DNA of 64,000 nucleotides from a virus. The notes below the pieces were generated by a model. It was not told the DNA's origin. It worked only from the letters and a program-made list of their open reading frames with translations, and made no database searches. The DNA lies in IMG/VR virus record IMGVR_UViG_3300008108_000098; one strand, 5' to 3'. The translations under genes were made by a program, and so were the position numbers. Each line of letters starts with the position of its first letter. The first letter of the stretch is position 1. Below are positions 1-39,857 of the stretch, in pieces.

Positions 1-426
1 ACCACAACTAAAACACAAGTAATATGGGAACAAAATAGTTCGGCAGTTACTCAACACCAAAGAGCTTGTATGATTTTATTATCATCAGGTGTTGGTGGTT
101 TTAATGGTCAAAGTAATGATTTTCATAGTTCAGTACCATACTCAACAAACACATGGTATCATTGGGTTATAACAGTTGATAAAAATGCAGGAACTAATCC
201 AATAAAGATATATGTAAATGGTTCTTTATATACACAAGGAAACAGTAGTGCAAGTGCAAGTAATTTAAACGTTGGAACACATGGATCCGCTATAGGATAT
301 AAACTAAATGCAAATGATGAATATTTTGCTGGAGAAATTCCTATTGTTAGAGTTTACAACAGAATACTTCAACCAGATGAAATAAGTTTGAATTTTGCCG
401 GATATAAAAGAAGATATAATATATAA
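1..426 (+). CDS. C-terminal part of LamG/ConA-like jellyroll-domain protein (gene continues upstream of window)
   Basis: Frame open from nt 1. C-terminal motif ...YNRILQPDEISLNFAGYKRRYNI shared with the next two ORFs. Confidence 0.55.
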   Translation, partial: TTTKTQVIWEQNSSAVTQHQRACMILLSSGVGGFNGQSNDFHSSVPYSTNTWYHWVITVDKNAGTNPIKIYVNGSLYTQGNSSASASNLNVGTHGSAIGYKLNANDEYFAGEIPIVRVYNRILQPDEISLNFAGYKRRYNI

Positions 427-1078
427 TAATATGTCAGTATACGGAGGATCGAAAATATCAAAATTGGATTTAGTATTTAGTGTAGATGCCGGATCATACC
501 GTTCTTATATTGGTACAGGAACAGCATGGAACGATTTAAGTGGTAATAAATACAATGGAACCTTAACAAATGGACCAACATTTAGTGCAAATAATGGTGG
601 ATATTTTTCATTTGATGGTACAAATGATTATGTCGACACAACATATCCAGCTACTGACATAAGTTTCCCAACATTTGAAGCGTGGGTATATAGAACAAGA
701 AATGATGGTGCATATAAATCAATAGTGCAAATTAATAATAACTCTGATGATGCGTTGTACGCTTATCCCGGAAATAACTTAGGATTTTGGCCGTGTAGCT
801 CATCTTCACTTACTGTTCCATTAAACGAATGGGCATACGTTGCGGCTTCTTTTGATGGTACAAATATAACTTATTGTGTCAACGGAACAATGGAAGTTGT
901 TTCTAATAGTAGTTGTAGTCACATTACTGATTTTGATTATATAAGACTTGCGGCAATCAATGGAACTGATAGTGAAATATGGGGGGGAAGGATTGCCTCA
1001 GCAAGAGTTTATAAAAGATCTTTAAGTCAAACTGAAATGACACAAAACTATAATTCACAAAAAAGAAGATTTATATGA
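395..1078 (+). CDS. LamG/ConA-like jellyroll-domain protein, tandem paralog
   Basis: Ends ...ARVYKRSLSQTEMTQNYNSQKRRFI. Overlaps neighbours (ATGA at 1075). Confidence 0.55.
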   Translation: MPDIKEDIIYNNMSVYGGSKISKLDLVFSVDAGSYRSYIGTGTAWNDLSGNKYNGTLTNGPTFSANNGGYFSFDGTNDYVDTTYPATDISFPTFEAWVYRTRNDGAYKSIVQINNNSDDALYAYPGNNLGFWPCSSSSLTVPLNEWAYVAASFDGTNITYCVNGTMEVVSNSSCSHITDFDYIRLAAINGTDSEIWGGRIASARVYKRSLSQTEMTQNYNSQKRRFI

Positions 1079-2583
1079 AAGTTGGTCTTAATATAGTACA
1101 ATCAGGTCTTGTATTTGGAATAGATGTTGGAAATCACAGATATTATCCTGGTGAACCAACAACCAATCTTTTACCAAATGCTTCGACAAACGCAATCCCT
1201 AAACTTGGAAATGGGTGGGGGACATACAATACAAATCAATATGGTAGTGGAACATATTTTTCTATCGGTACTGTCAGTAGTGTATCAAGTAATATTGTAA
1301 CAATGTCTTTAGCTCATTCATTAAGAACATATGATGTTATGCAACCACAGACAACTGGAGGTGGAGTAACGGCAGGAACAAACTATTTTATAAAAAGAGT
1401 TAGTAGTACTCAATTCTCTTTACATGAGTACAATAGTAGTCAAGATGGGTCACAAGGTTATATAAATAGTACAACCGGAATGCATAAAGTACATGACAGT
1501 ATTGCAAATGACACAAGAATTTCAATAAACTCAACTAATTTTCCAACGATGTGGTGGGGATATCCACACTTACCAAATTCAGGATTGGTAAAAGAAATTA
1601 TTACAAATGGTTTCACTAATCCATTAACAGGAGAAGTTACAGATTGTATAAGACAACACATAACAAGAGATAGTGGTGCGGATCACATGGCGTATGGAGT
1701 AGATGCAAGTTTTACATCAAACTCACCTATATATTGTTCATTTTGGGCAAGATCCGTTAATGCTGCGGCAGTTGGTAAAAGTATAAATTATTATCATTAT
1801 ACCTACGGGGTACAGTCTGCAACTGCATATGCGGTTGGTTGTACGTTAGGTCCAGTTGGAGAATGGCAAAGATTTGGATACACTTTTACATCACCCAACA
1901 ACACAGCGATTTCATACTGGTTTAATCCCGATGGACCATACAAATATGATATTGCAAATATCCAAATAGAACAAAAAGATCACCCGACTAAATTTACAAC
2001 AGGAAGTAGGTCATCAACAGAATGTCTATTAGACATTGCCAAAGCATCAACAGTGAATGTATCGAACGCATCATTTAGTTCAAATAATTTTTTAACTTTT
2101 GATGGTACGGATGACAGAGTATCAATTGCAAATAATTCGTCAATTAATATTGCAGGTGATATAACAATAGAATTGGTTTTAAAAAGAACCTCAGGACAAA
2201 ACGGTGTTCCAATTCATAAAGAAGTACAATATACAATTAGAATTTACGATGATAATACTATTACATATGCCGACAGTAGTTTGTGGTCATATGCAACTTT
2301 CGGAGCACATGGAAATGCGGTAACACCTGGTGTATACCATCACATAATTGTAACAAAATCTGGCTCAACAGTAACAATATATGTTGATAACAGTGTTGTT
2401 ATTTCAAAATCCTTCGGAAGTGCGATAACACAAACCAATAATACATTATATATAGGATCTTACGACGGAAGTTCTAATTATTTCAAAGGTGATATACCCG
2501 TTGCAAGAATATATAACAGAGCTTTATCTTCTAATGAAGTTGCACAAAACTTTAATTCTTATAAAAAAAGGTTTAATATTTAA
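1075..2583 (+). CDS. Large LamG-like protein (502 aa), putative fibre/receptor-binding protein
   Basis: Ser/Thr/Asn/Gly-rich. C-terminal ...ARIYNRALSSNEVAQNFNSYKKRFNI matches the paralog motif. Confidence 0.55.
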   Translation: MKVGLNIVQSGLVFGIDVGNHRYYPGEPTTNLLPNASTNAIPKLGNGWGTYNTNQYGSGTYFSIGTVSSVSSNIVTMSLAHSLRTYDVMQPQTTGGGVTAGTNYFIKRVSSTQFSLHEYNSSQDGSQGYINSTTGMHKVHDSIANDTRISINSTNFPTMWWGYPHLPNSGLVKEIITNGFTNPLTGEVTDCIRQHITRDSGADHMAYGVDASFTSNSPIYCSFWARSVNAAAVGKSINYYHYTYGVQSATAYAVGCTLGPVGEWQRFGYTFTSPNNTAISYWFNPDGPYKYDIANIQIEQKDHPTKFTTGSRSSTECLLDIAKASTVNVSNASFSSNNFLTFDGTDDRVSIANNSSINIAGDITIELVLKRTSGQNGVPIHKEVQYTIRIYDDNTITYADSSLWSYATFGAHGNAVTPGVYHHIIVTKSGSTVTIYVDNSVVISKSFGSAITQTNNTLYIGSYDGSSNYFKGDIPVARIYNRALSSNEVAQNFNSYKKRFNI

Positions 2584-2608
2584 TAATATAAAATAAAAAT
2601 TTAAAATT

Positions 2609-2953
2609 ATGTTTGAAAATAGAAGGTGGTTAATTATACCAACAAGTTTAACAGGATCAATAAATTTCAGTGAGGTCCTTGAATCGGGTCCAGATTCTTT
2701 ACGAACATCAAATGATGGTTCTTTGACCTTTGTAAAATATGACACATACTATAGACAGTCTGATGAAGAAAAGACGTTTTTAAACCCTGAAACGGGGTTA
2801 ATTGAAACAGTAACATTACCTGAAGGTTTATATGGAAGACCATCATTTTACTCCGATAATTACCAAGAATGTAACCATGAAACGATACTTGAAATTTTAA
2901 ATGGTCCTGATTGGAGTAAAGAAGCAGATTACGGCCAACAAATTGGAAATTAA
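2609..2953 (+). CDS. hypothetical protein
   Basis: 114-aa ORF in the same-strand block. Confidence 0.4.
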   Translation: MFENRRWLIIPTSLTGSINFSEVLESGPDSLRTSNDGSLTFVKYDTYYRQSDEEKTFLNPETGLIETVTLPEGLYGRPSFYSDNYQECNHETILEILNGPDWSKEADYGQQIGN

Positions 2954-2992
2954 GGTATTTATAAAGAGTATTTATAGTAAATAGAAAATAGT

Positions 2993-3211
2993 ATGCCAGG
3001 TACTCTCCCCAACACGGGACAAGAAATTAGTTTAGGAAGAATCGGATATGCTTTAGGTATAAATCCAAATGCGACGACTCAAACGAGATTGAATGCTGAC
3101 GTTGGCGTTGGTAGAAATAGATCATTATCTGGTGTGGCAAGTATCGCTTCGGGATCCCAATCCGCTGAAAGTACGGATTTTGGTGGTTTACAAACTCCAA
3201 ACACATATTAA
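2993..3211 (+). CDS. hypothetical Gly/Ser-rich protein
   Basis: 72-aa ORF. Confidence 0.3.
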   Translation: MPGTLPNTGQEISLGRIGYALGINPNATTQTRLNADVGVGRNRSLSGVASIASGSQSAESTDFGGLQTPNTY

Positions 3212-3246
3212 TTTATTTTTTTAATTTTTTTTGTTATATTTTTTAT

Positions 3247-3693
3247 ATGTTTCTCACATATAAAAATTTTTCGTCTAAATATGAATTGTTCTATATAAAA
3301 TGGAACGGAATTGAGTTTGATAAGGAAAAACTAATAAAGTTTGTAAAAAGAATTAATTTACTCAAAATTACCTCCATTTTTATAAAATCTCATCGAGAAG
3401 AACTTAAAATTCTCCAAGAAATCTATTATTCATATAATGAACATAAATTAAGAGGTTTATTACAAAATGATTCACAAATTTCAAGATTATCACTAATTGA
3501 AAAATGGTCAAGAATTGGTGCTGTTGATATACTTTTGACCGGAGTTTTTTCAAGAAATACCTATACAGTTTTAATAAATTTACCCAATAAAGATTATCAA
3601 CTTGCAATGAAGAGAGTTGAGGAATTAGTTAAATTAGGTAAAGAAATGTCATATCAAACAGAAAACATAACCGATAACATACCAGGAACATGA
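3247..3693 (+). CDS. hypothetical protein
   Basis: 148-aa ORF; ATGA overlap with the next gene. Confidence 0.45.
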   Translation: MFLTYKNFSSKYELFYIKWNGIEFDKEKLIKFVKRINLLKITSIFIKSHREELKILQEIYYSYNEHKLRGLLQNDSQISRLSLIEKWSRIGAVDILLTGVFSRNTYTVLINLPNKDYQLAMKRVEELVKLGKEMSYQTENITDNIPGT

Positions 3694-4325
3694 TAAAATC
3701 AAATTTCAATAGAAGTGTTTGGGATTCGAAACAAACAAAATTATCAATATTAGTACCAACAAGAGAAATGATGCATTCACAATTTTCTTATTGTTTGGCA
3801 CAACTATTAAGAACAACAAGTGAAGTTAATTTAGACACTTATCTTTTTTTTGACTCAAGTACAATTTTACTGAATCAGAGAGAAAAATTAATTGAAAAGG
3901 CAAAAGAAGTGAGATCTGATTATGTTTTGTGGTTGGATAGTGATATGATGTTTCCATCAACGACCGCCATTCGTCTATTAGAACACGATAAGGACATTAT
4001 TGCATGTAATTACATGAAAAGGACTAAACCACTTAAAACGGTTGCATATACCGATTTAAATGATTGGGATAGTTGGTTAAAAATGCAACCACAGGATGAT
4101 TTAGTAAAAGTACAAGGTGTTGGTATGGGTTGTATGTTAATGAAAACGAAAGTATTTGAATCATTATCTAAACCTTATTTTGAATTTAGATATGATAATG
4201 AAACAAAAGATTGGCACGGAGAAGATTTCTTATTACAAAAAAAATTAAGAGATAATGGATATGAAATTTATATCGATACTTTATTGAGTATGGAAATAAA
4301 ACATGTTGGTTTATATGCGTATTAA
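3690..4325 (+). CDS. GT-A fold glycosyltransferase
   Basis: Motifs LSILVPTRE ... LWLDSDMMFP (DxD). Confidence 0.5.
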   Translation: MIKSNFNRSVWDSKQTKLSILVPTREMMHSQFSYCLAQLLRTTSEVNLDTYLFFDSSTILLNQREKLIEKAKEVRSDYVLWLDSDMMFPSTTAIRLLEHDKDIIACNYMKRTKPLKTVAYTDLNDWDSWLKMQPQDDLVKVQGVGMGCMLMKTKVFESLSKPYFEFRYDNETKDWHGEDFLLQKKLRDNGYEIYIDTLLSMEIKHVGLYAY

Positions 4326-5431
4326 ACTTTATTTCTAATTTCAATCATCATATTACCGAACTCATATTGACCAGGTTCATAATGTGGTAATGATAGTCTT
4401 AATCTATATAATTGAATTATATCTTGATCAGTAAAAGGTGATTTTTCATAAATCATAACGTCTACATTATCAGTCAGTATAAATTTTGATCTTAGATCAT
4501 ACCTTGTATTTTTCTGTTCGTTTTCTATATAATCATTAGGGATTTCACCAAGATCAATTTTATCGAATAGAGGTTCAACATCAAATAATCTTTCTCTATT
4601 TCTACTCGTTAATCCTAAATTAAATGTTTTAAATTCAAACTTCTCATCTTCCCAATATCGAATCTCATTAAAAACCGATATTGGTACTCCCCACTTTCTA
4701 ATAAAATTTCTATTTGAAGACAATTCAATTTTTAATCTGTCATTTTTATAATCATCACTAAACCTTGAGGTCTGCGAAACAAAATGATAAGTAATTGCCG
4801 ATTCTGTTGTTTTTAATTTATATCCTTTTAGTTTCGCACGAATAAGAAAATCATCATCTTCACAAAATGCGGGAACAAAACTAAACCCATCGAAAAATCC
4901 AACATCTTCAAACATTTTTTTGTAACCACTCATAAAGAAAACTGCACCATCATATAATGTTTTATTGTTTTTATTATACTCGACATAATGATCAAACTGT
5001 TCATATTTGAAATCATAAAAGGAACTACCAAGATCTTTAATTACTTTACCCGGTCTTTTATGTCCAGCAAAGATCGGTGGTTCAATTGTTGTATATGATA
5101 AAAGTGTGTTCTCATCTAAAAGTTCTTCTATATTCTCTAAGAAGTATCTACCAATTACCATGTCATTATGAATTAAAACCAATTTTTCTGTGTCAACAAG
5201 TTTAATGCCGACATTGTATGTTTCAGAAAATGTTAATCTATCGTCATCATGAAATATTGTCAAATAATCATCAACATCAGACATTTCCTCTAACCATTCT
5301 TTAGTTCCATCTGTAGATCCACCACTACTAATTACTAATGGTGCATTAGGATAAATCTCCCTTAATCTTTGATAACAACTTTTCGTTAGATCTAATTTAT
5401 TTAAAACTGCTAATACAAATGTTATATTCAT
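4322..5431 (-). CDS. family 2 glycosyltransferase (two-domain)
   Basis: N-terminus MNITFVLAVLNKLDLTKSCYQRL, HDDD motif. Convergent end-overlap with 3690..4325. Confidence 0.55.
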   Translation of the reverse strand: MNITFVLAVLNKLDLTKSCYQRLREIYPNAPLVISSGGSTDGTKEWLEEMSDVDDYLTIFHDDDRLTFSETYNVGIKLVDTEKLVLIHNDMVIGRYFLENIEELLDENTLLSYTTIEPPIFAGHKRPGKVIKDLGSSFYDFKYEQFDHYVEYNKNNKTLYDGAVFFMSGYKKMFEDVGFFDGFSFVPAFCEDDDFLIRAKLKGYKLKTTESAITYHFVSQTSRFSDDYKNDRLKIELSSNRNFIRKWGVPISVFNEIRYWEDEKFEFKTFNLGLTSRNRERLFDVEPLFDKIDLGEIPNDYIENEQKNTRYDLRSKFILTDNVDVMIYEKSPFTDQDIIQLYRLRLSLPHYEPGQYEFGNMMIEIRNKV

Positions 5432-5991
5432 CTTAATGAATTGTATGTTGATAAAATTTTATTTATGTATTTGTGACTATTTGATTTTTTAAAACATTCG
5501 GACGCAAAATATCCATCCGCTTCATATTTTGTTATATCAAATCTTGTGTTGTCAATAATATTTTTTTTGATGATGAAATTATGACTATCAATATTGTATA
5601 CACTTATCACATTACCTTTTAATCTAATTCGATGATCTTTTGTTTCTTGCATAAATGAGATAAAATCCTCAGTTGAATCTTTTATATTTTCCCATAAATC
5701 ATTATGAATTATGGTATCGTCATCATTGAAATATATGTATCCGGTTTCAATCATATCTAACGCAAAATTTCTTTGTGAGTGACCTGCAACACTTTTTACA
5801 TTCCTGTGTAGATAAACTTCACAGTTATCGGGAATTAAATCACTATCAGGTAAAGTATCACCATCATATATTATAACCCATCTATAATTTTCTTTAGGTA
5901 TGTTTATACTTTTAGAAATCGTTATTAGATTTTGTGGTCGACTACATGGTGTGATAATATTTAAAAACATCTTTATAATTTTTTTATCCAA
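5428..5991 (-). CDS. putative glycosyltransferase (GT-A-like)
   Basis: Motifs IIYDGD...FNDDDTIIHNDLW. Confidence 0.4.
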   Translation of the reverse strand: MDKKIIKMFLNIITPCSRPQNLITISKSINIPKENYRWVIIYDGDTLPDSDLIPDNCEVYLHRNVKSVAGHSQRNFALDMIETGYIYFNDDDTIIHNDLWENIKDSTEDFISFMQETKDHRIRLKGNVISVYNIDSHNFIIKKNIIDNTRFDITKYEADGYFASECFKKSNSHKYINKILSTYNSLR

Positions 5992-6518
5992 CTCGTATCT
6001 TTAAATGTTAAGTCGGGACTTCCTAATGTTTCATCAACGGCATCAATTACACCTTTCCATTTTTTGTGATAATCATGACCACCAATAAAACCATTAGAAT
6101 TTATTAATTGTATATAGTTTTTTATGTCTATTTTTACTTGATCATATGTATGTAAACCATCTATATAAACAAAATCAAATTTTTGATTTTTTAAATCCAC
6201 AAATGCCTCATCACTTGTTTTTTTTATGTGAGTGATGTTATCGTAATTAGATATCACTTCTACAAATTTATAATAGACATCTTCTAATTTCATATATGAA
6301 CATGTTATGTCATTTGGATCGTAATCATTTATGAAAGGATCGATTGAAATTACATTCTTGAAATATTTTGAAAAAAGTTCTGTAGATTCACCTACGTATG
6401 AACCAATTTCAATCATAGACAATTCTTTAGTATCTTGGTAACTTTGGATATGATTTATTAGATCAAGTAAACCATCCATGTACGATTCGCTTCTCATTTT
6501 ATAAACAACATCTACCAT
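5973..6518 (-). CDS. class I SAM-dependent O-methyltransferase (TylF/Methyltransf_24-like)
   Basis: Motifs IEIGSYVGEST ... YIDGLHTYDQV ... GGHDY. Confidence 0.55.
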   Translation of the reverse strand: MVDVVYKMRSESYMDGLLDLINHIQSYQDTKELSMIEIGSYVGESTELFSKYFKNVISIDPFINDYDPNDITCSYMKLEDVYYKFVEVISNYDNITHIKKTSDEAFVDLKNQKFDFVYIDGLHTYDQVKIDIKNYIQLINSNGFIGGHDYHKKWKGVIDAVDETLGSPDLTFKDTSWIKKL

Positions 6519-7129
6519 GTTTTTTGATTTAATATTGTGTTATGTGGATATATCGTACCATTAGTATAATCTTTAAAATTATTTAATATACGATCATTAT
6601 ATAAATGTATGTTATTAACATCTTTTATAAAAATTGAAATATAATCAGACCATATATCCGATTCCTTATCACTTGTATATTGTTCTATTACTGCCGTGTT
6701 ATAACCATTTCTTTTTGCCCAATTTGACATTGCATTTCCACTATCAGGAAAAAATCTCCAACAGTCTACTGGAAATCTATGAAAATCTCCATTAGATGGT
6801 GCGTTTAGATAGAATAATCCTGTTGGTTTTAAAACTCTAATTATTTCTAAAAACAACACCCAAAAAAATTCACTATGTTCAAAACAAGAAGAACTTATAA
6901 CATAATCAAACGAATTATCTTCAAAAGGTAATTTATATGGATCAGTTAATACAACATCAACACCAGGTCCTGGACCTAAATCTACACCAGTGTATTTTGA
7001 ATTTTCAGAAGATAATGAACGAATATTAAAACTACTCAAGTAAGAACCAATTTCCAAAAAAGTTTTACTTTCTTTAGGAACATATGTGTCAAAAAATCTT
7101 CTTGCGTTTTGTTCTGCGGTTTTATGCAT
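6512..7129 (-). CDS. SAM-dependent methyltransferase
   Basis: Motifs LEIGSY...GVDLGPGPGVD...RVLKPTGLFYLNAP. Confidence 0.6.
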   Translation of the reverse strand: MHKTAEQNARRFFDTYVPKESKTFLEIGSYLSSFNIRSLSSENSKYTGVDLGPGPGVDVVLTDPYKLPFEDNSFDYVISSSCFEHSEFFWVLFLEIIRVLKPTGLFYLNAPSNGDFHRFPVDCWRFFPDSGNAMSNWAKRNGYNTAVIEQYTSDKESDIWSDYISIFIKDVNNIHLYNDRILNNFKDYTNGTIYPHNTILNQKTW

Positions 7130-7132
7130 TTT

Positions 7133-7717
7133 TTAATTATGTACGTATAATAATTTATTTATTTTGACAACATCTTTTAATGGAAACTTTCTAATGTATT
7201 CCTCAACAAAAACACCATCAGCTTGCATATTAGTTACATCCAATCTCATCTGTTGTGCGTATTCTCTTTTAACCATAAAATTACCAACATCAATTTTACC
7301 CCATTTGGGTTGACAATCAATTGGGATATATTGAAAATCTGTCCAATTGTGTACCATGTTACAAAATACAAAATGTGAGTTGGGTGTTCCTAATGCCGCA
7401 TCAATCATGTTGTCCACAAAAACAGGTGTATAATAATTGTCTTCACCCGTCATTATAACCCAATCTTCGGTTGCATGCTCAAGACCGTAATTTCTTGGAG
7501 TGTGACCCCAATCATTATATCGTTTTGGTAATATTGTAAACTTTATTCTGTCGTCATCCTTATAAAAATCCATAATCTTGTCTAATGTACCTTCAGGTGG
7601 ACAATCAGCAACAACATGTATTTTCCATTTTTTACTACGTTGTGCCCTAATCGAACTAATGATACACATTAAGTGATCCGTTCTTTCATAAGTGGGTATT
7701 ATAAATTCTATTTTCAT
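7133..7717 (-). CDS. family 2 glycosyltransferase
   Basis: Motif IPTYERTDHLMCIISSIRAQ ... VVADCPP. Confidence 0.6.
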   Translation of the reverse strand: MKIEFIIPTYERTDHLMCIISSIRAQRSKKWKIHVVADCPPEGTLDKIMDFYKDDDRIKFTILPKRYNDWGHTPRNYGLEHATEDWVIMTGEDNYYTPVFVDNMIDAALGTPNSHFVFCNMVHNWTDFQYIPIDCQPKWGKIDVGNFMVKREYAQQMRLDVTNMQADGVFVEEYIRKFPLKDVVKINKLLYVHN

Positions 7718-7721
7718 AAAA

Positions 7722-8714
7722 CTATTTTTTCCAAAAATTATAAATTCCTTTTTCTAATTCGTAACTACTCCAAACAAATCTTTCTCTATTTGGTTGTTTT
7801 TTTGCCCATTCCCACATTAATTTTAATCCATCGTATAAAGATGTTTTATCTTCATAACCTAATAATTTTACAGATTTCTGCCAAGAAGGGATCGCATTTT
7901 TTACTTCGTGTCTTTGCTCTTCATATACAACCATAGAATCAGAAATAACCTCTCTTAAAACTTTATTCGCTTCATTGATTGTATAATGTTTTGTCCCACC
8001 AAGATTAATAATTTCTTTAGAACATTCAGGTAATTGAGATGATTTCCATAGACCTTCTAAACAATCATCCACAAAACTAAAAGATCGTTTTTGTTCACCA
8101 TTACCGAAAATTGTCATAGGTTGATTATTCATATATTGATACATCCAAATACCTAAAACATTTCTGTATTTATCCCAAATATTTTGTTTGATTCCGTATA
8201 CATTATGTGGTCTGATTATACACCAATCTAATCCATGTTGTTCACCTGCTACTTTAATATCCATTTCACATGCATATTTTGCGATACCATATGGATCAAT
8301 TGGGCATGGTATTTGTGATTCATCAAACACATCACCATTACCATGACCATAAACTGCCATAGTTGATGTGAAGATCAATCTTTTTACATCATGTTTTATA
8401 CATTCGTTAATAATCCTCGCAGTTGCAACTAAATTATTTTGATAGTTATAACTTCTTATGAATGGTGAAAGACCTTCGGCGGCATAAGCGGCAAAATGGT
8501 AAACGTAATCAAATTTATGTACCTCAAAACAATTTTCAATTGGATGAGAAACTAAATTCATTTGCCAAAACTCAACTTTAGGATTTATATTTTCACGATA
8601 TCCACCGCTTAAATCATCCATACCAACGATATGTACTTCAGGATGATTTTCAATAATCCAATCCGCAAGTCTTGATCCTATTAACCCCGCCACTCCTGTA
8701 ATTAATATCTTCAT
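7722..8714 (-). CDS. NAD-dependent sugar epimerase/dehydratase (extended SDR; RmlB/GalE-like)
   Basis: Rossmann motif MKILITGVAGLIGSRL and YGIAKYACE (YxxxK). Confidence 0.8.
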   Translation of the reverse strand: MKILITGVAGLIGSRLADWIIENHPEVHIVGMDDLSGGYRENINPKVEFWQMNLVSHPIENCFEVHKFDYVYHFAAYAAEGLSPFIRSYNYQNNLVATARIINECIKHDVKRLIFTSTMAVYGHGNGDVFDESQIPCPIDPYGIAKYACEMDIKVAGEQHGLDWCIIRPHNVYGIKQNIWDKYRNVLGIWMYQYMNNQPMTIFGNGEQKRSFSFVDDCLEGLWKSSQLPECSKEIINLGGTKHYTINEANKVLREVISDSMVVYEEQRHEVKNAIPSWQKSVKLLGYEDKTSLYDGLKLMWEWAKKQPNRERFVWSSYELEKGIYNFWKK

Positions 8715-9334
8715 AATGTATTATAATAATTGTTTTGTCTCTCTTGTTTTTCTATTGTTTTATGGTGATATATGAAATAAATTTCATCATCAGTTGGTAA
8801 AAGAGAGTACATCCTACCACTTGTGATTCTTTCGTGTACTTTACCAAACCATTGTAGACCTTTTTTATAAATTCTACCTTGAAAATCTGGAAAATTTATC
8901 CAACCTAATTCATTGACTCTCCATCTCCATTTGTTAATATGGTCTTCTGTTATACCATCAACCGTATTTTTCCTTGGTACATAAAATAAATCAACTTCAG
9001 GATTTAATTCTACAATTTCATATACGTTTTTAACTAAATAATCACTAATCATTTCATCTGCATCTAATTGAAAGATATAGTCACCATTACAATATGAGTT
9101 TAATTTATTTTTCCATTCTGCGAAATCATTATTAAAGCTAAAACCTCTATATGTTTGTACGTTTGGTAGTTTATTATAATCTAATAAGAATTTTAAAACA
9201 TCCTCATTACCATTTTTTTCATCAAATAAAATCACTATCTCATCCTCTACTCTTTTGTTTTCTAACAAAAATGGTAAAAGTTTTTTTATTTCTGTTAACT
9301 CGTTACATACTGTTATAGCAAAACTTATTTTCAT
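8711..9334 (-). CDS. family 2-like glycosyltransferase
   Basis: Motifs MKISFAITVCNE ... QLDADE (DxD). Confidence 0.55.
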   Translation of the reverse strand: MKISFAITVCNELTEIKKLLPFLLENKRVEDEIVILFDEKNGNEDVLKFLLDYNKLPNVQTYRGFSFNNDFAEWKNKLNSYCNGDYIFQLDADEMISDYLVKNVYEIVELNPEVDLFYVPRKNTVDGITEDHINKWRWRVNELGWINFPDFQGRIYKKGLQWFGKVHERITSGRMYSLLPTDDEIYFIYHHKTIEKQERQNNYYNTL

Positions 9335-9564
9335 ATTGTTTCTCTTGCAAAAATTTTAAATACTCTGTCATTATCGGTAAATGTGATATTTCCATTAGGT
9401 GTTGGTGATATTTGAATTCTTAACTCATTTGGACCCGTACCAAAAACTATTGGTTCATTATCATTAAATTGAAAACAAAACTCAACATTGTTTTGAAATA
9501 CGGGAGGATTGAATGTTAAAACCATTCTTTCCTGTTCACCTCTTAAAAATTTGAAATCAGACAT
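9331..9564 (-). CDS. hypothetical protein
   Basis: 77-aa ORF coupled within the glycan operon. Confidence 0.35.
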   Translation of the reverse strand: MSDFKFLRGEQERMVLTFNPPVFQNNVEFCFQFNDNEPIVFGTGPNELRIQISPTPNGNITFTDNDRVFKIFARETI

Positions 9565-10814
9565 TAACTTATTTTTTTTAATTGTGGTAGTACTAATTTT
9601 TTCTCTGTTGGTTTAATTATATAATTTTTTAAGATAGATTCAAACTTTTCCTTCATTTTTTCTGAAGAAAAATTCTCCATGTTGTCATTCTTTAAACTTT
9701 TTGATTTTTCTGTAAATTCGTCATATTTTTCATAAACTAATTTCATAACCGCAATAAATTCATCATAGTTTGCAGTAAACCACTTTGAACCATTAATTAT
9801 AAACTTGTCTTGCGAACTTTGATGGACATCAGTTAAATTACCACCAATTAATACTGCTTTATCTATTGGTAAAAAGTCTTTATGTCCTGACCAATTAGAA
9901 GCGAGAATGGGTTTACCTGTCATAGAAAACTCTAATAATGGTCTACCAAAACCTTCACCCTTAGTAATTGACACCATAGATTTTACTTTAGGATGATTGT
10001 ATAATTCATTCATCTCACTATCACTCAGTTCCCCAAAAAGTAAATAAATTGACGGTGGATTTTCTATTCCTTTAACAATAGTTTCAATTTTTTTTCTAAA
10101 GTTTTCTCTTTCTTTAATTGAAAAAACCGCTGAAGATGTTTTTAATATCAATGCTGGTTGAGACTCTTGATTTTTAAAGGCTTCTGCAAAACATTTTATA
10201 GTCATCCCAACATCTTTTCTATCTTGACCCATGTCACCCTTCAACCAATGACCAACAAATAAAAATGCAAAATCTTCTTTTATCTCCAAATCGATACCCG
10301 AATATTTGTCATTATATATTTCAGTGTTTACACCTTCAAATAAAATTTCAACAGGTTTAGTTATCTTATGTTGTTTAACTAATTTTTCAGTATTTTTTTC
10401 TACTTCATTATAAACAGAAGACAAAAGAACATCTCTTGAAAATACTGACGTTGTTATTACTAAATCCATAAGATTACAACCGTCTATCCATTCTTTAGGT
10501 GCAACGGTTGTTTCAATACCTGCGGTAACGCCTATATTAAATTTACCAATTCTTGTGAATTCATTGGGTACTGTTACTTGAATATAAACATCTGGTTGTT
10601 GAGATATATTAGTAACAATTCTCGATTCTATCCATTGATGAAAATTATTATCTTTATTTAGTGCGGTCATTGGAGTTCCTCCCCACCCACAACTATCAAT
10701 AATGATATCAAAAAAATCCATTTTATAAAGAGATTCTAATACATCTCTTGCGTGTGATCCATATCCACTTCTTGATTTAACAGGTCCCCTAAATAATAAT
10801 AAGTGTTTTTTCAT
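9564..10814 (-). CDS. GT4/GT1 glycosyltransferase
   Basis: C-terminal motif EGFGRPLLEFSMTGKPILAS. Confidence 0.6.
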   Translation of the reverse strand: MKKHLLLFRGPVKSRSGYGSHARDVLESLYKMDFFDIIIDSCGWGGTPMTALNKDNNFHQWIESRIVTNISQQPDVYIQVTVPNEFTRIGKFNIGVTAGIETTVAPKEWIDGCNLMDLVITTSVFSRDVLLSSVYNEVEKNTEKLVKQHKITKPVEILFEGVNTEIYNDKYSGIDLEIKEDFAFLFVGHWLKGDMGQDRKDVGMTIKCFAEAFKNQESQPALILKTSSAVFSIKERENFRKKIETIVKGIENPPSIYLLFGELSDSEMNELYNHPKVKSMVSITKGEGFGRPLLEFSMTGKPILASNWSGHKDFLPIDKAVLIGGNLTDVHQSSQDKFIINGSKWFTANYDEFIAVMKLVYEKYDEFTEKSKSLKNDNMENFSSEKMKEKFESILKNYIIKPTEKKLVLPQLKKIS

Positions 10815-12187
10815 ACTATTTTGTACAACTCATATTTTCTTTTTGGTGTGTAGTTTTTTGATGTCGTTTCAATTCCATCAATCATACTTTCACACATTAT
10901 TTTATTTGTTAAGTTTTTTAACATAAATTCTCTACCGAGTACTCCCCTACGTTTTCTTTCTTCTCGTGACCAATTATAAACTTTCATGATAGCGTCCGCA
11001 ACATCATAATCATTAACTCTGTCATCAAAAATGTATGGTGTTGCGGGTGAACCATTTATGTTATGTGCTGAAGACCATACAGGTACCACCCATTCACCAT
11101 AGTTTAAATGTCCCCATTTTGTTTTGTCGTGTAAAGTTCCAAATTTAACATAATCATCCGCAGAAAATTCTTTACCGTTTTCATTTAATCCCATTTGATC
11201 TTGAAGTCCACCTGTAACATTTGCAATGATAGGTGTACCCGACATCAACGATTCTGCAGTTGTTAAACCAAATCCCTCATTATTTGCAATGTTAATTGTA
11301 CAATCAACAATGTTATATAAATTATTCAAGACATCTGGTTCAACTTTCATGTTGGTAAACTTCACATTATACTCTGGACACAAATCATTAACAACAGCAT
11401 TTAAATCTGTACCGTTTGTATCCACTGGTGAAGTATGCATTAAAAGTAAACAACGATCGGATTTTTCTTTTGGGAGTTTATCACAAAATAATTTGAATGA
11501 ATAAATCACATCCGCAGGTAATTTTCTTCTGATATTTCTATTATTATAAAATAGAATAAAATCGAATTCCCTTTCACCAAAAATAATATCTTTTACTTTT
11601 TTATTTTCATCCGTAGAAGTTGGTTGAAAAACATTTGAGTTGATACCATGAGGAACATATGATATTTGCCAATCTTCTAATGGTTTATATGTTATATGAT
11701 CTTTTAATTTACCAACTCTATTAACTATTCCATATGTTTGTTTAGATATACAACCAATCCAATCACAACTTTCGTAGTAATCACGATTATATTTTGGATC
11801 AGGTAGATCATCCCATATGTGATAATATAGTACAGGTACCTCTTGTCTTATTTCATGTTCGTTATCATATAACCATTGCCAATAATGTGGATCGGTAAAA
11901 TGTAAGATAGCATCTGGTTTTTCCTGTTTGATTAATCTTCTCAACATAAGAATATCACCATATCCATTATATGGTATGATTTTAACATCGGCATCTTGAA
12001 CCCCTGTTCGCTCTCTGATGTCTTTATTTAAATCGACAATTTTACCATTTTCAGGATGATTAATTGCAGCACCCAATTGAACCCAATCGTACTTGTGTAC
12101 AGTTCCTAAAACAATTTCTTTAGATACTGTTGCAACACCTGAAGTCATTCTCAAATCATCAGATAATAGTAATATTTTTTTTTTCAT
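10811..12187 (-). CDS. GT4 glycosyltransferase
   Basis: Motif NEGFGLTTAESLMSGTPIIAN. Confidence 0.7.
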   Translation of the reverse strand: MKKKILLLSDDLRMTSGVATVSKEIVLGTVHKYDWVQLGAAINHPENGKIVDLNKDIRERTGVQDADVKIIPYNGYGDILMLRRLIKQEKPDAILHFTDPHYWQWLYDNEHEIRQEVPVLYYHIWDDLPDPKYNRDYYESCDWIGCISKQTYGIVNRVGKLKDHITYKPLEDWQISYVPHGINSNVFQPTSTDENKKVKDIIFGEREFDFILFYNNRNIRRKLPADVIYSFKLFCDKLPKEKSDRCLLLMHTSPVDTNGTDLNAVVNDLCPEYNVKFTNMKVEPDVLNNLYNIVDCTINIANNEGFGLTTAESLMSGTPIIANVTGGLQDQMGLNENGKEFSADDYVKFGTLHDKTKWGHLNYGEWVVPVWSSAHNINGSPATPYIFDDRVNDYDVADAIMKVYNWSREERKRRGVLGREFMLKNLTNKIMCESMIDGIETTSKNYTPKRKYELYKIV

Positions 12188-12190
12188 TAA

Positions 12191-12424
12191 TTAAAACTTT
12201 GAACCACTTGACGCAAGTCCGTTATGATTTGAAATCATTTCTCTGAATTTCTCATCCTTATTGAATAAATCTAAAGATCTGTTTACAAGTTTTTGTAAGT
12301 TGATCGACCCATCTAAAGACGTAATTTTAAATTTTTTGTAAACATCCTCAAGGATATTAACACTCGTTAATTTAGTTTCTGCTTTCATATTAGTATATAT
12401 ATTTTTATATATTATAACCGTCAA
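12191..12424 (-). CDS. hypothetical protein
   Basis: 77-aa ORF. Confidence 0.35.
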   Translation of the reverse strand: MTVIIYKNIYTNMKAETKLTSVNILEDVYKKFKITSLDGSINLQKLVNRSLDLFNKDEKFREMISNHNGLASSGSKF

Positions 12425-12454
12425 AAAAATTCACCAAAAGGTGAATTTTAATTT

Positions 12455-12631
12455 TTATTGTGACTGTTCGTTATTTTGTTCCTCTTCGACTGTTTTTAAT
12501 TTCTCCATGATCATATCAACAATCTGAGTGTCATTAGATGATTGTTGAGTTTCATTTTGTAATTGCACTTGATTTACATTTACTGTAGGAACTGTAGTCT
12601 GTGATTTGTTTTTTTTACATCCGCAACCCAT
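12455..12631 (-). CDS. small Gln/Asn-rich protein beginning MGCGCKKNK
   Basis: Start taken as the internal ATG. The longer ORF would leave only 9 nt to the divergent gene at 12722. Confidence 0.35.
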   Translation of the reverse strand: MGCGCKKNKSQTTVPTVNVNQVQLQNETQQSSNDTQIVDMIMEKLKTVEEEQNNEQSQ

Positions 12632-12721
12632 AATAATTTTTTTATAAATATTTTGTTTATTACTTTTTATTCGGTATATTTTAAATATAAAAAAATAAGC
12701 AACAAAAATCAATAGTAATAA

Positions 12722-13411: not shown

Positions 13412-13413
13412 GA

Positions 13414-24902: not shown

Positions 24903-25430
24903 ATGAGACGAAAGGTTATTTTCATAGATGTAGACGGACCATTGGCATGGGGTACATGGGGAAACGGTAGAGTTACACTTAACGAAGGGACTTCTCATTT
25001 GTTTACAATACCATATCCTTGGGTTGAGGACGATTGCCAAGCCCTCCAAAAGATTTGCAATGAAACAAATGCAAGTTTGGTGGTTAGTTCAGATTGGAGA
25101 AAACATTTTAGTTGGATTCAATTGAAACGTATTTTTCAATACTATGGAATTACCGCACCTATTGTGGATATAACTACACATCAGGATCTATGGAATAAAT
25201 TGAGTAGACCGTCAATTGAGTGGGAAAGAGCCTCGGAAATTTGTAAGTGGGTTAAAGATAACAAAATCAGTAATTGGATTTCAATTGATGATATGAAGTT
25301 AGATCAACAATACAAGTGGATGAGACCGAGAGTCCCAATGTGGAGACACGTTCAAGTAGATGGTGATTGGGGAACAGGTGGTAGATTGAGGGACAAAATT
25401 GAAGAATGTATTTTTAAATTAAACCGTTAG
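24903..25430 (+). CDS. HAD-like hydrolase
   Basis: Motifs FIDVDGPL ... VVSSDWR. Confidence 0.5.
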   Translation: MRRKVIFIDVDGPLAWGTWGNGRVTLNEGTSHLFTIPYPWVEDDCQALQKICNETNASLVVSSDWRKHFSWIQLKRIFQYYGITAPIVDITTHQDLWNKLSRPSIEWERASEICKWVKDNKISNWISIDDMKLDQQYKWMRPRVPMWRHVQVDGDWGTGGRLRDKIEECIFKLNR

Positions 25431-32113: not shown

Positions 32114-32653
32114 ATGAAATTTATTAAGACTGACATCGACGGATGTTACTTGATCACATTTAAGACGTTTCATGACGATAGAGGTTACTTTGGTGTTCCA
32201 TTCAATACTAATGACTTCAACGAAGGTGTTGGAAAGAAAGTTAATTTTGTTCAAGATAATATGTCCTATTCATATAAGAATGTGATTAGGGGACTACATT
32301 TTCAAAAAGGAGACTTTGAACAAGCTAAATTAGTTACATGTACATATGGTAGGGTTTATGATGTGGTAGTTGATATTAGAAAAGATTCGTATACATATGG
32401 AAACGTGGTTAAAGTTGAACTTGGCCTTGGATTAGAAAGACAACTCTTTATTCCAAGAGGATGTGCACACGGGTTTTCAGTATTAAGCGAGAAAGCTATT
32501 TTCCAATATAAAGTCGACAATATATATAATAAGGAGAGTGAAGGTGGAATCATATACAATGACAACGTTTTAAATATAAATTGGGGAGTAGAACGAAATA
32601 AAGAGATTGTTTCACCAAAAGACCTTGAATTACCCTCTTTTATTTCATTGTGA
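32114..32653 (+). CDS. dTDP-4-dehydrorhamnose 3,5-epimerase-like cupin (RmlC family)
   Basis: Motifs FHDDRGYF, IRGLHFQ, GRVYDVVVDIR, PRGCAHGF. Confidence 0.8.
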   Translation: MKFIKTDIDGCYLITFKTFHDDRGYFGVPFNTNDFNEGVGKKVNFVQDNMSYSYKNVIRGLHFQKGDFEQAKLVTCTYGRVYDVVVDIRKDSYTYGNVVKVELGLGLERQLFIPRGCAHGFSVLSEKAIFQYKVDNIYNKESEGGIIYNDNVLNINWGVERNKEIVSPKDLELPSFISL

Positions 32654-39596: not shown

Positions 39597-39609
39597 ACAA
39601 AATAAAAAT

Positions 39610-39856: not shown

Positions 39857-39857
39857 A

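Follow-up and report, generated by a model that had tools for sequence, protein, structure and literature searches.

A gene cassette rich in glycosyltransferases at the edge of a phage sequence raises the question of what its enzymes modify. The sequence examined here, called the window, is a stretch of 64,000 nucleotides (64 kb; IMG/VR record IMGVR_UViG_3300008108_000098) out of a genome of at least 178 kb. We suggest, with about an even chance of being right, that the beginning of the window is one half of a combined region for virion glycosylation and tail fibres in a large aquatic phage of the myovirus type, whose enzymes would O-glycosylate virion fibre proteins in the cytoplasm; this target is the one that we infer from gene content and order.

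Between positions 3690 and 12424, the window encodes seven glycosyltransferases (five GT-A and two GT4/GT-B enzymes), two SAM methyltransferases, one SDR epimerase-like enzyme, and two small conserved ORFs (Table 1). As a preliminary description of this DNA had stated, eleven minus-strand ORFs (4322..12424) run in the same direction and converge on a plus-strand unit with GT-A and LamG genes. The eleven are tightly packed or overlapping, and a twelfth ORF follows at 12455..12712. The plus-strand unit is a tail-fibre operon whose last gene encodes a GT-A enzyme of its own.

Table 1. Genes and other features of the window, with the matches and conservation counts on which their naming rests.
Feature	Position	Strand	Evidence
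LamG/ConA-like protein (416 aa), C-terminal part, cut by window edge	1..426	+	Open from base 1; Laminin_G_3 60.2 bits
LamG/ConA-like protein, 227 aa	395..1078	+	Laminin_G_3 52.2 bits; phrog_24074, phrog_8510 "virion structural protein"
LamG/ConA-like protein, 502 aa	1075..2583	+	Laminin_G_3 67.3 bits; lectin/CBM-type jelly-rolls plus C-terminal helix (AF2)
114-aa ORF of fibre operon	2609..2953	+	Called as gene in L083-L086
72-aa ORF, follows fibre gene in relatives	2993..3211	+	Kept beside fibre and GT-A genes
148-aa ORF, conserved partner of GT-A gene	3247..3693	+	Homologs 53-56% identical, same position in relatives
GT-A glycosyltransferase (Anp1/Mnn9-like), last fibre-operon gene	3690..4325	+	Anp1 33.3 bits; phrog_1574 1.2e-22; DSD motif
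GT2 glycosyltransferase, 369 aa, distal frame end	4322..5431	-	Glycos_transf_2 31.8 bits; 64/82 loci
Divergent GT-A glycosyltransferase, variable slot	5428..5991	-	Glycos_transf_2 16.9 bits (sub-cut-off); DDD motif
SAM methyltransferase, Methyltransf_24 class, variable slot	5973..6518	-	52.5 bits
SAM methyltransferase, Methyltransf_11 class, variable slot	6512..7129	-	48.0 bits
GT2 glycosyltransferase, variable slot	7133..7717	-	Glycos_transf_2 58.0 bits; 23/82 loci
Extended-SDR nucleotide-sugar epimerase-like enzyme, variable slot	7722..8714	-	Epimerase 144.8 bits
GT2 glycosyltransferase, frame gene	8711..9334	-	Glycos_transf_2 34.6 bits; DAD motif; 80/82 loci
77-aa conserved small protein	9331..9564	-	48/82 loci; conserved core EFCFQF...FKLFARE
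GT4b, GT4-type GT-B glycosyltransferase, frame gene	9564..10814	-	Glycos_transf_1 25.2 bits; EX7E at residue 287; 82/82 loci
GT4a, GT4-type retaining GT-B glycosyltransferase, frame gene	10811..12187	-	Glycos_transf_1 31.6 bits; EX7E at residue 304; 82/82 loci
Small conserved protein, first cassette gene	12191..12424	-	65 aa from ATG at 12388 (65 aa also in L083); 80/82 loci
Perfect 10-bp hairpin directly upstream of cassette	12426..12449	.	Perfect hairpin (7 bp or more) at this position in 61/80 relatives scanned
Small ORF upstream of cassette, 58 aa as called	12455..12712	-	Poorly conserved: 6/82 loci, 34-37% identity
dTDP-4-dehydrorhamnose 3,5-epimerase (RmlC), remote from cassette	32114..32653	+	TIGR01221 206.1 bits (cut-off 155.75); dTDP_sugar_isom 204.9 bits

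The enzyme classes first assigned by eye were supported by HMM searches (Pfam and hhalign), which bring the total to seven glycosyltransferases. Pfam Glycos_transf_2 scores exceed the curated cut-off for 4322-5431, 7133-7717, and 8711-9334. The family profile of the divergent enzyme at 5428-5991 aligns with that of the 7133 family with an hhalign probability of 96.5% (E = 1e-9; 167 columns, including the DxD position). GT4b, which falls slightly short of the curated Glycos_transf_1 cut-off (25.2 versus 26.4 bits; the cut-off for Anp1 is 28.8 bits), is a distant paralog of GT4a (E = 9e-7), and its homolog in phage immuto carries an RfaG-like annotation. The AF2 model of GT4a (pLDDT 78.8) shows a GT-B fold; the modelled fold is generic and thus carries no information on the acceptor. 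Best PDB sequence matches are chlorovirus B736L for GT4a (E = 2e-7), GalT1 of the Fap1 glycosylation pathway for the GT2 at 4322 (E = 5e-5), and Mnn9 for the fibre-operon GT-A (E = 0.006). The first two of these matches, both weak, are to enzymes tied to protein glycosylation. The top NCBIfam match of the SDR is GalE at 112.7 bits, under the cut-off of that model, and its substrate is therefore left unassigned. The RmlC-like epimerase reported at 32114 is genuine (TIGR01221, 206 bits versus a cut-off of 156). Pfam and PHROG gave no family match for the ORFs at 2609..2953, 3247..3693, and 9331..9564, and a PDB profile search with the 12191..12424 protein returned nothing; read by eye, the latter is possibly a regulator of the ribbon-helix-helix type.

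The cassette is a lineage-wide phage module. Its frame, s12191-GT4a-GT4b-(s9331)-GT2-[variable slot]-GT2, recurs in the 82 loci fetched; the four frame glycosyltransferases are conserved across the phage lineage, with varying genes in between. Slot length runs from 8 bp to 6.8 kb, the slots hold 68 ORF clusters, and 31 gene arrangements occur among 61 loci. The slot representatives tested with Pfam (n = 20) are sugar-modifying enzymes or gave no match; their content includes Glf mutase, SDRs, O-methyltransferases, further glycosyltransferases, and an AMP-binding enzyme. Methyltransferases in the slots of relatives also match rhamnosyl O-methyltransferase/CmcI, and aminotransferases are annotated in immuto. 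So large a glycosylation locus had been called unusual for a phage, but it is common within this lineage: relatives of GT4a occur in 193 IMG/VR contigs, at least 7970 times in metagenomes, and in the cultured phages immuto, Mel-JY01, and RM378 (47 to 51% identity in phages of Flavobacterium and Microcystis, 28% in a Rhodothermus phage). Only 1 of 185,579 bacterial and archaeal species genomes contains one. Because GT4a is kept across such hosts and is so rare in cellular genomes, its acceptor is more probably carried by the phage than specific to a host. Recent capture of host CPS genes, a scenario raised in the preliminary description, is contradicted, because viral contigs share the frame, bacterial genomes almost never carry it, and its composition is phage-like (cassette GC, 0.28 to 0.31, as in the remaining window).

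A candidate acceptor lies just upstream. Contig L083 is 100% identical to positions 1-12583 of the window and extends beyond its edge, with the gene order methyltransferase-GT9 protein, fibre, LamG array, GT-A. The fibre is a collagen-like protein of 1391 aa, with 651 residues in Gly-Ser/Thr-Ser triplets and matches to Collagen (8.5e-90) and Peptidase_S74. The first gene of the operon, about 8 kb outside the window, encodes a methyltransferase fused to a TibC-type protein O-glycosyltransferase (GT9 domain). In the cytoplasm, TibC attaches heptose to serine residues of an adhesin with a repetitive sequence. The TibC-like GT9 domain is also present in the window's own genome, and that of the copy in a related contig, L043, matches TibC with E = 1.8e-51 over 340 residues and keeps all four iron-finger cysteines. 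This gene, which precedes the fibre, is thus clearly homologous to TibC/AAH (PDB 4rap and 4rb4), the bacterial autotransporter heptosyltransferases. Unlike those enzymes, it is phage-encoded and fused to a methyltransferase (in other clades, to a GT1 domain), and no autotransporter is nearby, its neighbours being collagen-like fibres or a tail sheath protein. The order TibC-like (BAHT) gene, fibre, (GT-A), then convergent cassette is found in 14 viral loci, and in a second clade TibC-like genes adjoin collagen-like ORFs. Mel-JY01 has the cassette, a TibC-like multi-glycosyltransferase protein, and G-S/T-S collagen repeats beside a structural protein, with about 75 kb between the cassette and the fibre/TibC region. 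Because the cassette converges on a module that starts with a TibC-type enzyme and a Ser/Thr-rich collagen-like fibre, fibre glycosylation gains circumstantial support.

The preliminary description had offered the LamG proteins, beside the fibre, as candidates for self-glycosylation, but no feature singles them out as a glycan acceptor. Its three paralogs all match Laminin_G_3 (60, 52, and 67 bits), but the tandem array in the full genome counts six, and the first ORF in the window is cut by its edge (the full ORF is L083:8102-9352). The C-terminal motif that it noted is real and common to all six, with departures in the 227-aa protein, which ends in KRRFI, and in the 416-aa protein, which has LQ for LS. 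The label "fibre-like" does not fit, since the AF2 model of the 502-aa paralog (pLDDT 85.1) is a globular stack of lectin/CBM-type jelly-rolls. Its Foldseek matches are lectin, CBM, and botulinum HCN domains and phage LamG proteins, and some of its 1330 homologs have a CBM_4_9 match. The LamG proteins are more likely lectin-like tail/baseplate modules of the fibre operon, and glycan binders rather than fibres. Farther along the operon, the 72-aa ORF adjoins fibre and GT-A genes in the relatives L037, L044, L052, L089, L096-L102, and L106.

The main rival to fibre glycosylation is remodelling of the host surface. The cassette enzymes would then work on the cytoplasmic side of the host membrane, where their substrates would be lipid-linked precursors of O-antigen, capsule, or protein glycans, and would use the host's initiating enzyme, flippase, and ligase, with an outcome such as a superinfection block or altered grazer recognition. 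GT2, GT4, SDR, sugar methyltransferases, and RmlC are indeed the enzyme classes of Und-P-dependent O-antigen and capsule loci, which likewise have conserved flanks around a variable centre. Unlike such loci, and contrary to the "complete-looking" assembly locus first described, the window contains no initiating lipid-carrier transferase, flippase, polymerase, or exporter (phosphoglycosyl transferase, Wzx, Wzy, Wzz, ABC exporter). Pfam matched no flippase, polymerase, exporter, or polyprenyl-phosphate transferase family in any of the 20 slot representatives, and no initiating transferase, flippase, polymerase, or exporter is annotated in immuto or Mel-JY01. No cassette protein of the window has a predicted membrane segment, which suits soluble cytoplasmic enzymes and is also compatible with a host target, since soluble GT2/GT4 enzymes may be peripheral membrane proteins acting on host lipid-linked acceptors; many O-antigen glycosyltransferases have no membrane segment. 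JGI labels GT4a homologs "glycosyltransferase involved in cell wall biosynthesis," and comparable gene sets in cyanophages have been interpreted as host-surface modification (PMC12801897). Moreover, a fibre gene is not beside the cassette in most relatives: among 53 cassette loci with downstream sequence, a collagen/S74 fibre adjoins it in only 5, another large Gly/Ser-rich ORF in 16, and unrelated genes in 32. On the other hand, conservation of the frame enzymes extends over phages that infect three phyla of differing envelope structure, GT4a is almost missing from bacterial genomes, and the cassette adjoins a fibre operon with its own GT-A gene and a protein O-glycosyltransferase. We therefore regard a host-surface target as improbable, though worth serious consideration.

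A phage-borne acceptor need not be the fibre. Immuto has the cassette, but neither a TibC-like gene nor collagen repeats in the tail region were found in it, so that a collagen-like fibre need not have been the original acceptor of the four frame enzymes. The cassette might instead modify a capsid, sheath, or baseplate protein or make a soluble glycoconjugate, with fibre adjacency incidental and the TibC-like enzyme and fibre-operon GT-A forming a separate fibre-specific system. In keeping with this, the frame enzymes are far commoner than the TibC-like gene (193 versus 83 IMG/VR contigs, the latter from several unrelated clades), which in a third clade adjoins a 1327-aa tail sheath protein. 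In mycobacteriophages, one or two enzymes modify the C-termini of capsid and tail tube proteins (Freeman et al. 2023, Cell Host Microbe, PMC10527164, as cited in PMC12619734). There, phage glycosyltransferases lie near structural genes and modify proteins of the phage's own virion in the cytoplasm, as is proposed here; the present region differs in its seven glycosyltransferases, methyltransferases, and SDR, its frame around a variable slot, its TibC-type enzyme, and its likely collagen-like fibre acceptor. The convergent arrangement in 14 loci argues against an incidental neighbourhood, one pathway is more economical than two independent glycosylation systems side by side, and no alternative acceptor was identified, so that we hold another acceptor to be a minority prospect.

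Glycosylation of DNA was considered as a third alternative, in which the glycosyltransferases would place oligosaccharides on hydroxymethylated phage DNA bases to evade restriction. Such hypermodification systems have reportedly been surveyed by Pyle et al. in 2024, with the T-even phages as the comparable case. Phage glycosyltransferases are classically known for glycosylating DNA (PMC12619734), a DNA-methylase-like gene (13414-14121) is conserved beside the cassette, in divergent orientation, in 57 of the 82 loci, and a thymidylate-synthase-family gene lies 3 kb away. However, the latter scores 313 bits against the thymidylate synthase equivalog (cut-off, 108) and therefore looks like a true thymidylate synthase, not a hydroxymethylase, and the subset of window ORFs submitted to Pfam contained no other pyrimidine hydroxymethylase, base kinase, or similar enzyme. 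The window also encodes a C5-cytosine methylase, which would be pointless on 5-substituted cytosine. T4 alpha- and beta-glucosyltransferases are absent from the best 50 structural matches of GT4a, and seven glycosyltransferases with sugar O-methyltransferases suggest a complex oligosaccharide. A DNA target is thus very unlikely.

Under fibre glycosylation, the TibC-like enzyme would place the first sugar on Ser/Thr residues of the fibre in the cytoplasm late in infection, and the fibre-operon GT-A and cassette enzymes would lengthen the glycan. The four frame enzymes may build a common core, the slot enzymes may add lineage-specific sugars and O-methyl caps, and the SDR and RmlC may supply modified nucleotide sugars. 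This would yield a fibre dense in O-linked glycans, with a glycan chemistry differing between related phages; possible roles of the glycan are stabilising a triple helix poor in proline, shielding the fibre, or tuning adsorption.

Parts of this scheme have precedents. On serine-rich-repeat adhesins, soluble GT-B and GT-A enzymes (GtfA/GtfB, GalT1 of the Fap1 pathway) build O-glycans step by step in the cytoplasm, and BclA of Bacillus anthracis is a collagen-like filament bearing rhamnose-containing, methylated oligosaccharides. The likeness, a repetitive Ser/Thr-rich fibre with a soluble GT-B and GT-A set, is one of mechanism and not of family: GtfA/GtfB are not among the PDB matches of GT4a, indicating no specific homology, and unlike serine-rich-repeat systems the phage region has no accessory Sec system. 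Chloroviruses use soluble glycosyltransferases and sugar methyltransferases to assemble a glycan whose core is conserved and whose decorations differ between strains. These are virus-encoded as in the phage (B736L of NY-2A, PDB 3oy2; A064R), but chloroviruses infect eukaryotes, attach their glycans to the capsid protein by N-linkage, and have the genes dispersed instead of gathered in one cassette; in structure, GT4a resembles B736L weakly (Foldseek rank 12, 16% identity). A further comparison is offered by the "Moraphages," large aquatic phages with predicted Bacteroidota hosts, for which four core orthologous groups of putative glycosyltransferases were reported and their target left open (Arch Virol 2025, PMC12619734). 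Their number matches that of the four frame enzymes, whereas the accessible text of that paper describes no variable slot, TibC-like enzyme, or collagen-like fibre and does not mention immuto, Mel-JY01, or RM378. If the fibre reading is true, fixed cassette ends around a changeable middle suggest phage "glycan types" as a testable idea.

Scans for promoters and terminators did not exceed the results for shuffled sequence. In 61 of 80 relatives scanned, the position upstream of the cassette holds a perfect hairpin (7 bp or more), in many different sequences, and the hairpin at 12426..12449 probably acts as a terminator, separating the cassette as an independent unit.

The eleven minus-strand ORFs that the preliminary description had placed between 12424 and 4322, tightly packed or overlapping and convergent on a plus-strand unit ending at 4325, were all recovered. 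The last gene of this cassette, GT2_4322 (numbers in gene names are start coordinates), and the convergent plus-strand GT-A gene have overlapping stop codons in the TTAA at 4322-4325. Pfam, hhalign, and motif searches together give seven glycosyltransferases, with the DxD-type motifs of the GT-A enzymes read from translations; for the ORF at 5428, the GT-A assignment is reached solely by profile-profile comparison. The two GT1/GT4 enzymes, GT4a and GT4b, are distant paralogs that both carry EX7E in the C-terminal domain. Modeled with AF2 (pLDDT 78.8), GT4a adopts the fold of retaining GT-B enzymes and matches MshA, GlgM, BshA, and B736L; as a clue to the acceptor the structure search gave no hint, since the matches are generic retaining GT-B enzymes only. 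The extended SDR matches GalE best, but below the family cut-off, and we therefore leave its substrate unassigned. The RmlC homolog noted earlier at 32114 is genuine. Several glycosyltransferases and nucleotide-sugar-modifying enzymes are grouped here in one operon, as in O-antigen and capsule loci, and the cassette does not differ in GC content from the rest of the window.

Predicted genes of the cassette and of other parts of the window
Feature	Coordinates	Strand	Basis or remark
Anp1-like GT-A	3690-4325	+	Pfam above curated cut-off; final gene of the fibre operon
GT2 (GT2_4322)	4322-5431	-	Pfam above curated cut-off
Weak glycosyltransferase candidate	5428-5991	-	Distant paralog of the 7133 GT2; hhalign probability 96.5%, E = 1e-9, DxD position aligned
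SAM methyltransferase	5973-6518	-	Pfam
SAM methyltransferase	6512-7129	-	Pfam
GT2	7133-7717	-	Pfam above curated cut-off
Extended SDR	7722-8714	-	Pfam
GT2 (GT2_8711)	8711-9334	-	Pfam above curated cut-off
GT1/GT4 (GT4b)	9564-10814	-	Pfam marginal, 25.2 bits vs 26.4 cut-off; EX7E at residue 287
GT1/GT4 (GT4a)	10811-12187	-	Pfam; EX7E at residue 304
N6/N4 DNA-methylase-like	13414-14121		24.9 bits, just below cut-off
Thymidylate synthase	15401-16525		374 aa
DUF5672 protein	16530-17231		58.5 bits
PcfJ-like	17445-19247		600 aa
PcfJ-like	19294-20688		464 aa
HAD_SAK_2 phosphatase-like	24903-25430
SPFH/Band 7	30583-31527
C5-cytosine DNA methylase	33340-34245		Match to profile positions 3-112 of 324
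Four-tRNA cluster	39524-40863		Trp-CCA, Met-CAT, Asp-GTC, Ser-TGA
CAP-domain protein	42014-42541
GP88	56208-56987

The first cassette gene (12191-12388, 65 aa; s12191) had seemed a possible ribbon-helix-helix regulator, a guess that the PDB profile search did not support (best E 0.8). Directly upstream of it lies a perfect hairpin (12426-12449). Of 80 scanned relatives, 61 likewise have a perfect hairpin there, with a stem of 7 bp or more, and its sequence takes many forms among them. Scans of 1-14000 found no excess over shuffled sequence, either of sigma-70 promoters (91 versus 93, in a scan whose coverage excludes Bacteroidota-type promoters) or of terminators (5 versus 4.6). The DNA-methylase-like ORF is the divergent neighbor of the cassette in 57 of 82 related loci. 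A contig of the same phage from another metagenome (L085) has a 58-bp deletion in the gene of the 416-aa LamG protein (window 92-149) and a 204-bp deletion inside GT4a (window 11458-11661; product of 390 aa), and its ORFs for the 434- and 416-aa LamG proteins are split; either natural variation in the population or an error of assembly could account for this.

The cassette had been described as a complete-looking polysaccharide assembly locus, a view that the gene content contradicts. Among the cassette ORFs of the window and 20 representatives of variable-slot gene clusters from its relatives, Pfam matched neither an initiating polyprenyl-phosphate sugar transferase of the WbaP/WecA type nor the Wzx, Wzy, Wzz, or ABC exporter families (flippase, polymerase, chain-length regulator, and exporter), and no initiating transferase is annotated in Flavobacterium phage immuto or Microcystis phage Mel-JY01. 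The peak 19-residue hydropathy is below 1.6 in every cassette protein of the window, so that no membrane segment is predicted. Because membrane segments and carrier and export families are lacking, the cassette is not a self-sufficient polysaccharide-assembly locus. Nor is it host capsule DNA of recent acquisition, as had been considered: its GC content is window-like, and of 185,579 genomes representing bacterial and archaeal species, only 1 has a GT4a relative, which lies on a contig of 248 kb assigned by binning to a Flavobacteriaceae MAG. The cassette is nearly restricted to viruses.

Window 1-12712 had no megablast match among 50,697 phage records. At the protein level, GT4a homologs exist in Mel-JY01 (51% identity), immuto (47.5%), and Rhodothermus phage RM378 (28%), with 193 relatives in IMG/VR and at least 7970 homologs in metagenomes. 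The cassette is a module shared across the lineage, with a constant frame of genes around a variable middle: in 82 fetched loci the gene order is s12191, GT4a, GT4b, (s9331), GT2_8711, a slot of variable genes, and GT2_4322. The distance from GT2_8711 to GT2_4322 ranges from 8 bp to 6.8 kb, and the interval between GT4b and GT2_4322 holds 68 ORF clusters in 31 arrangements over 61 loci. By Pfam, slot representatives of the relatives encode UDP-galactopyranose mutase, additional SDRs, an AMP-binding enzyme, an FAD oxidoreductase, DUF3431, rhamnosyl O-methyltransferase/CmcI-type methyltransferases, and TOD1/MUCI70-like and other glycosyltransferases; WecE-type aminotransferases are annotated in immuto. 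Rapid swapping of slots among near-identical phages was tested and rejected, as slot content mostly tracks flank divergence: it is identical in 83 of 85 pairs at 85% nucleotide identity or more, with a mean Jaccard index of 0.27 for pairs at 70-80%, and a single recent change was noted, where the flanks were 96% identical. Thus, the slot is variable between species-level lineages rather than hypervariable within populations. Downstream of the cassette, most relatives (L017, L030, and others) have another convergent block, which comprises an ORF of 155 aa, a multi-pass membrane protein, ORFs that resemble outer-membrane proteins and whose signal peptides were judged by eye, and, by Pfam, a radical SAM protein. 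Of the genes that typically follow the cassette in most relatives (clusters D0-D11), none lies within the 64-kb window.

The plus-strand unit on which the cassette converges, here called the fibre operon, extends upstream of base 1. The exact sequence of its 502-aa LamG protein (LamG502) occurs in 68 blocks of public assemblies, in contigs of up to 178,617 bp. Contig L083, from the window's own genome, is 100% identical to window 1-12583, base 1 being L083:8927. Its upstream genes, tightly packed on the same strand, encode an 895-aa protein with Methyltransf_23 and Glyco_transf_9 matches, a 1391-aa protein, small ORFs, and LamG proteins. The 1391-aa protein matches Collagen (E = 8.5e-90), ends in a Peptidase_S74 chaperone domain, and has 651 residues in Gly-X-Y triplet runs composed almost wholly of Gly, Ser, and Thr; many phages have annotated long tail fibre proteins that match its C terminus. 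Judged by these sequence features, it is a tail fibre of collagen-like type. A collagen/S74 fibre gene lies directly downstream of, and convergent on, GT2_4322 in five cassette loci.

The LamG proteins are a different matter. All three plus-strand ORFs of 1-2583 match Laminin_G_3 (52 to 67 bits by Pfam); the first runs past the window edge and is 416 aa in full, and the order in L083 is 434, 416, 227, and 502 aa, with two more LamG-like ORFs (258 and 231 aa) between the fibre and the 434-aa protein. The C-terminal motif previously noted in three of them is common to all six paralogs as YN(R/K)xL(S/T)xxE....N..K(K/R)R, and in an AF2 model of LamG502 (pLDDT 85.1), a globular jelly-roll stack, it forms the terminal helix. 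Foldseek neighbors of this model are a trans-sialidase lectin domain, botulinum toxin HCN, CBM16, CBM22, and many LamG proteins of aquatic phages, among them an annotated baseplate wedge subunit and an annotated minor tail protein. The model and its neighbors thus indicate ordinary lectin-like tail or baseplate modules and not the fibre-like proteins proposed at first, and nothing in the LamG proteins marks them as glycan acceptors.

Glycosyltransferase genes lie within and beside this structural module: the GT-A gene ends the fibre operon, the cassette converges on it, and a TibC-like gene precedes the fibre. It is unlikely, in our judgment, that the cassette enzymes serve to remodel the host surface. 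Soluble GT2 and GT4 enzymes are able to act on lipid-linked acceptors, and the genes downstream of the cassette are unrelated in most relatives, both of which would suit host-surface remodeling; however, the enzymes have been conserved in phages whose hosts span three phyla, the representatives tested include no carrier or export genes, and the cassette is linked to the fibre operon.

TibC and AAH carry out cytoplasmic O-glycosylation of serines in repetitive adhesins. The gene beyond the fibre in the relative L043 (19877-21334, minus strand) matches TibC (4rap) with an E value of 1.8e-51 over about 340 residues (141-479 against 40-380 of TibC), and the four cysteines of its iron finger all fall opposite TibC C339, C342, C358, and C370. 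In the window's own genome the same domain (L083:3-752, upstream of window base 1) forms the C-terminal 250 residues of the 895-aa ORF and keeps the four cysteines as VCNSCW...WCPEH...FEC. TibC and AAH use ADP-heptose as donor and assemble as dodecamers; Pfam and NCBIfam searches with window ORFs revealed no gene of a heptose pathway. Whereas the acceptor of TibC and AAH is an adjacent autotransporter adhesin, the neighbors of the phage enzyme are Peptidase_S74 collagen-like fibres or a tail sheath protein.

TibC-like genes are confined, among the 50,697 phage records, to Mel-JY01 and three huge uncultured phages; in IMG/VR they occur on 83 contigs, which form three groups. In group 1 (14 loci) the TibC-like gene is followed by the fibre gene, the set [o2993, o3247, GT-A], and then the convergent cassette; three more loci end after the fibre. 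In group 2 (43 to 49% identity) the enzyme adjoins collagen-like ORFs, the longest with 2569 aa, and LamG arrays occur as well. In group 3 (about 39% identity) the gene of a 1327-aa tail sheath protein comes immediately after those of an FkbM methyltransferase, a GT1 protein, and a GT1-GT9 (TibC-like) fusion (L121:6009-15186; similarly in L119 and L136). Sheath domains cover only about the last 280 residues of the sheath protein, which may be a glycosylated, extended sheath. Elsewhere (L161:5742-11266), a carbamoyltransferase adjoins a 1317-aa protein with GT9 and GT1 domains. In Mel-JY01 a 1226-aa protein with GT1, GT9, and TibC_1st domains adjoins a structural protein, with G-S/T-S collagen-like repeats alongside. 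The repeats lie in a 1016-codon open frame (L087:2-3049, plus strand, from record PP395634.1) beneath CDSs annotated on the opposite strand, and a gene for a collagen-like fibre may have been overlooked in the deposited annotation.

From these data we infer a mechanism of fibre glycosylation to which we would give about an even chance. The TibC-like enzyme would prime Ser and Thr residues of the fibre in the cytoplasm, the GT-A enzyme and the cassette enzymes would lengthen the glycan, the methyltransferases would cap it, and the SDR and RmlC would supply modified sugars. The observations on which this scheme is built are the enzyme inventory, the soluble nature of the proteins, the frame and slot, the near-restriction to viruses, the arrangement of the fibre operon, and the TibC homology. 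A serious alternative, though an improbable one, is that the cassette acts on a different phage acceptor or makes a different product: the TibC-like gene is far less widespread than the frame enzymes, and immuto lacks both this gene and, in its tail region, collagen repeats. If fibre glycosylation does occur, the glycan could stabilize the triple helix, as glycosylated threonine does in annelid cuticle collagen; this would fit the sequence because the fibre repeats are almost without proline. Shielding of the fibre or tuning of adsorption is equally possible.

In its likeness to cytoplasmic protein glycosylation, the proposed system resembles virion glycosylation in mycobacteriophages, chlorovirus capsid glycans, TibC/AAH glycosylation of autotransporters, and the glycosylation of serine-rich-repeat adhesins and of BclA. 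The cassette is organized similarly to an O-antigen locus but without the defining features of such loci. To our knowledge, protein glycosylation in tailed phages has been demonstrated experimentally mainly in mycobacteriophages, with one or two enzymes. No paper describing a phage-encoded enzyme of the TibC family was found, nor anything relevant on immuto, Mel-JY01, or glycosylated collagen-like tail fibres. In the literature searched, three features seem not to have been described before: the frame-and-slot architecture, the TibC-type enzyme of phages, and the pairing of that enzyme with a Ser/Thr-rich collagen fibre. A 2025 paper on “moraphages”, which are large aquatic phages with predicted Bacteroidota hosts, reports that their core includes four orthologous groups for glycosylation and leaves the role of these groups open (PMC12619734).

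We tentatively suggest, as a wider and rather doubtful extension, that an abundant lineage of large aquatic phages carries mucin-like glyco-fibres, in which a TibC-type enzyme primes hundreds of Ser/Thr residues of a proline-poor collagen-like fibre, an O-antigen-like cassette of four fixed enzymes and a swappable slot extends the glycan, and related phages differ in glycan type. Such types would be a phage counterpart of bacterial serotypes and would influence how stable the fibre is, how the phage adsorbs, and whether it escapes recognition by hosts or predators. Widespread environmental phages would then spend about 10 kb or more on complex glycans of their host-recognition apparatus, built by enzymes of bacterial adhesin-glycosylation ancestry and varying among related phages much like O-antigens among bacteria. 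This would open direct tests of glycan effects on phage adsorption, stability, and ecology and provide soluble, lipid-carrier-independent protein glycosylation enzymes for glycoengineering. As cultured Mel-JY01 appears to hold all components, the idea is testable now.

DNA as a target of the glycosyltransferases we consider very improbable. The only thymidylate-synthase-family gene in the window scores 313 bits on the equivalog TIGR03284 (cut-off, 108), as expected of a true thymidylate synthase and not of a hydroxymethylase, and the other window ORFs put to Pfam gave no match to this family. A C5-cytosine methylase is present, and T4 alpha- and beta-glucosyltransferases are absent from the PDB sequence matches and from the best 50 Foldseek matches of the GT4a model. 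Pfam searches with 20 further window ORFs added no sugar or DNA-modification genes, and most other window ORFs scanned had no family match. The C5-cytosine methylase itself may be divergent or truncated. The two PcfJ-like paralogs are adjacent, and the DUF5672 gene directly follows the thymidylate synthase gene. The latter product is matched in two or three separate stretches by profiles of 264-296 positions, which suggests an insertion of roughly 100 aa.
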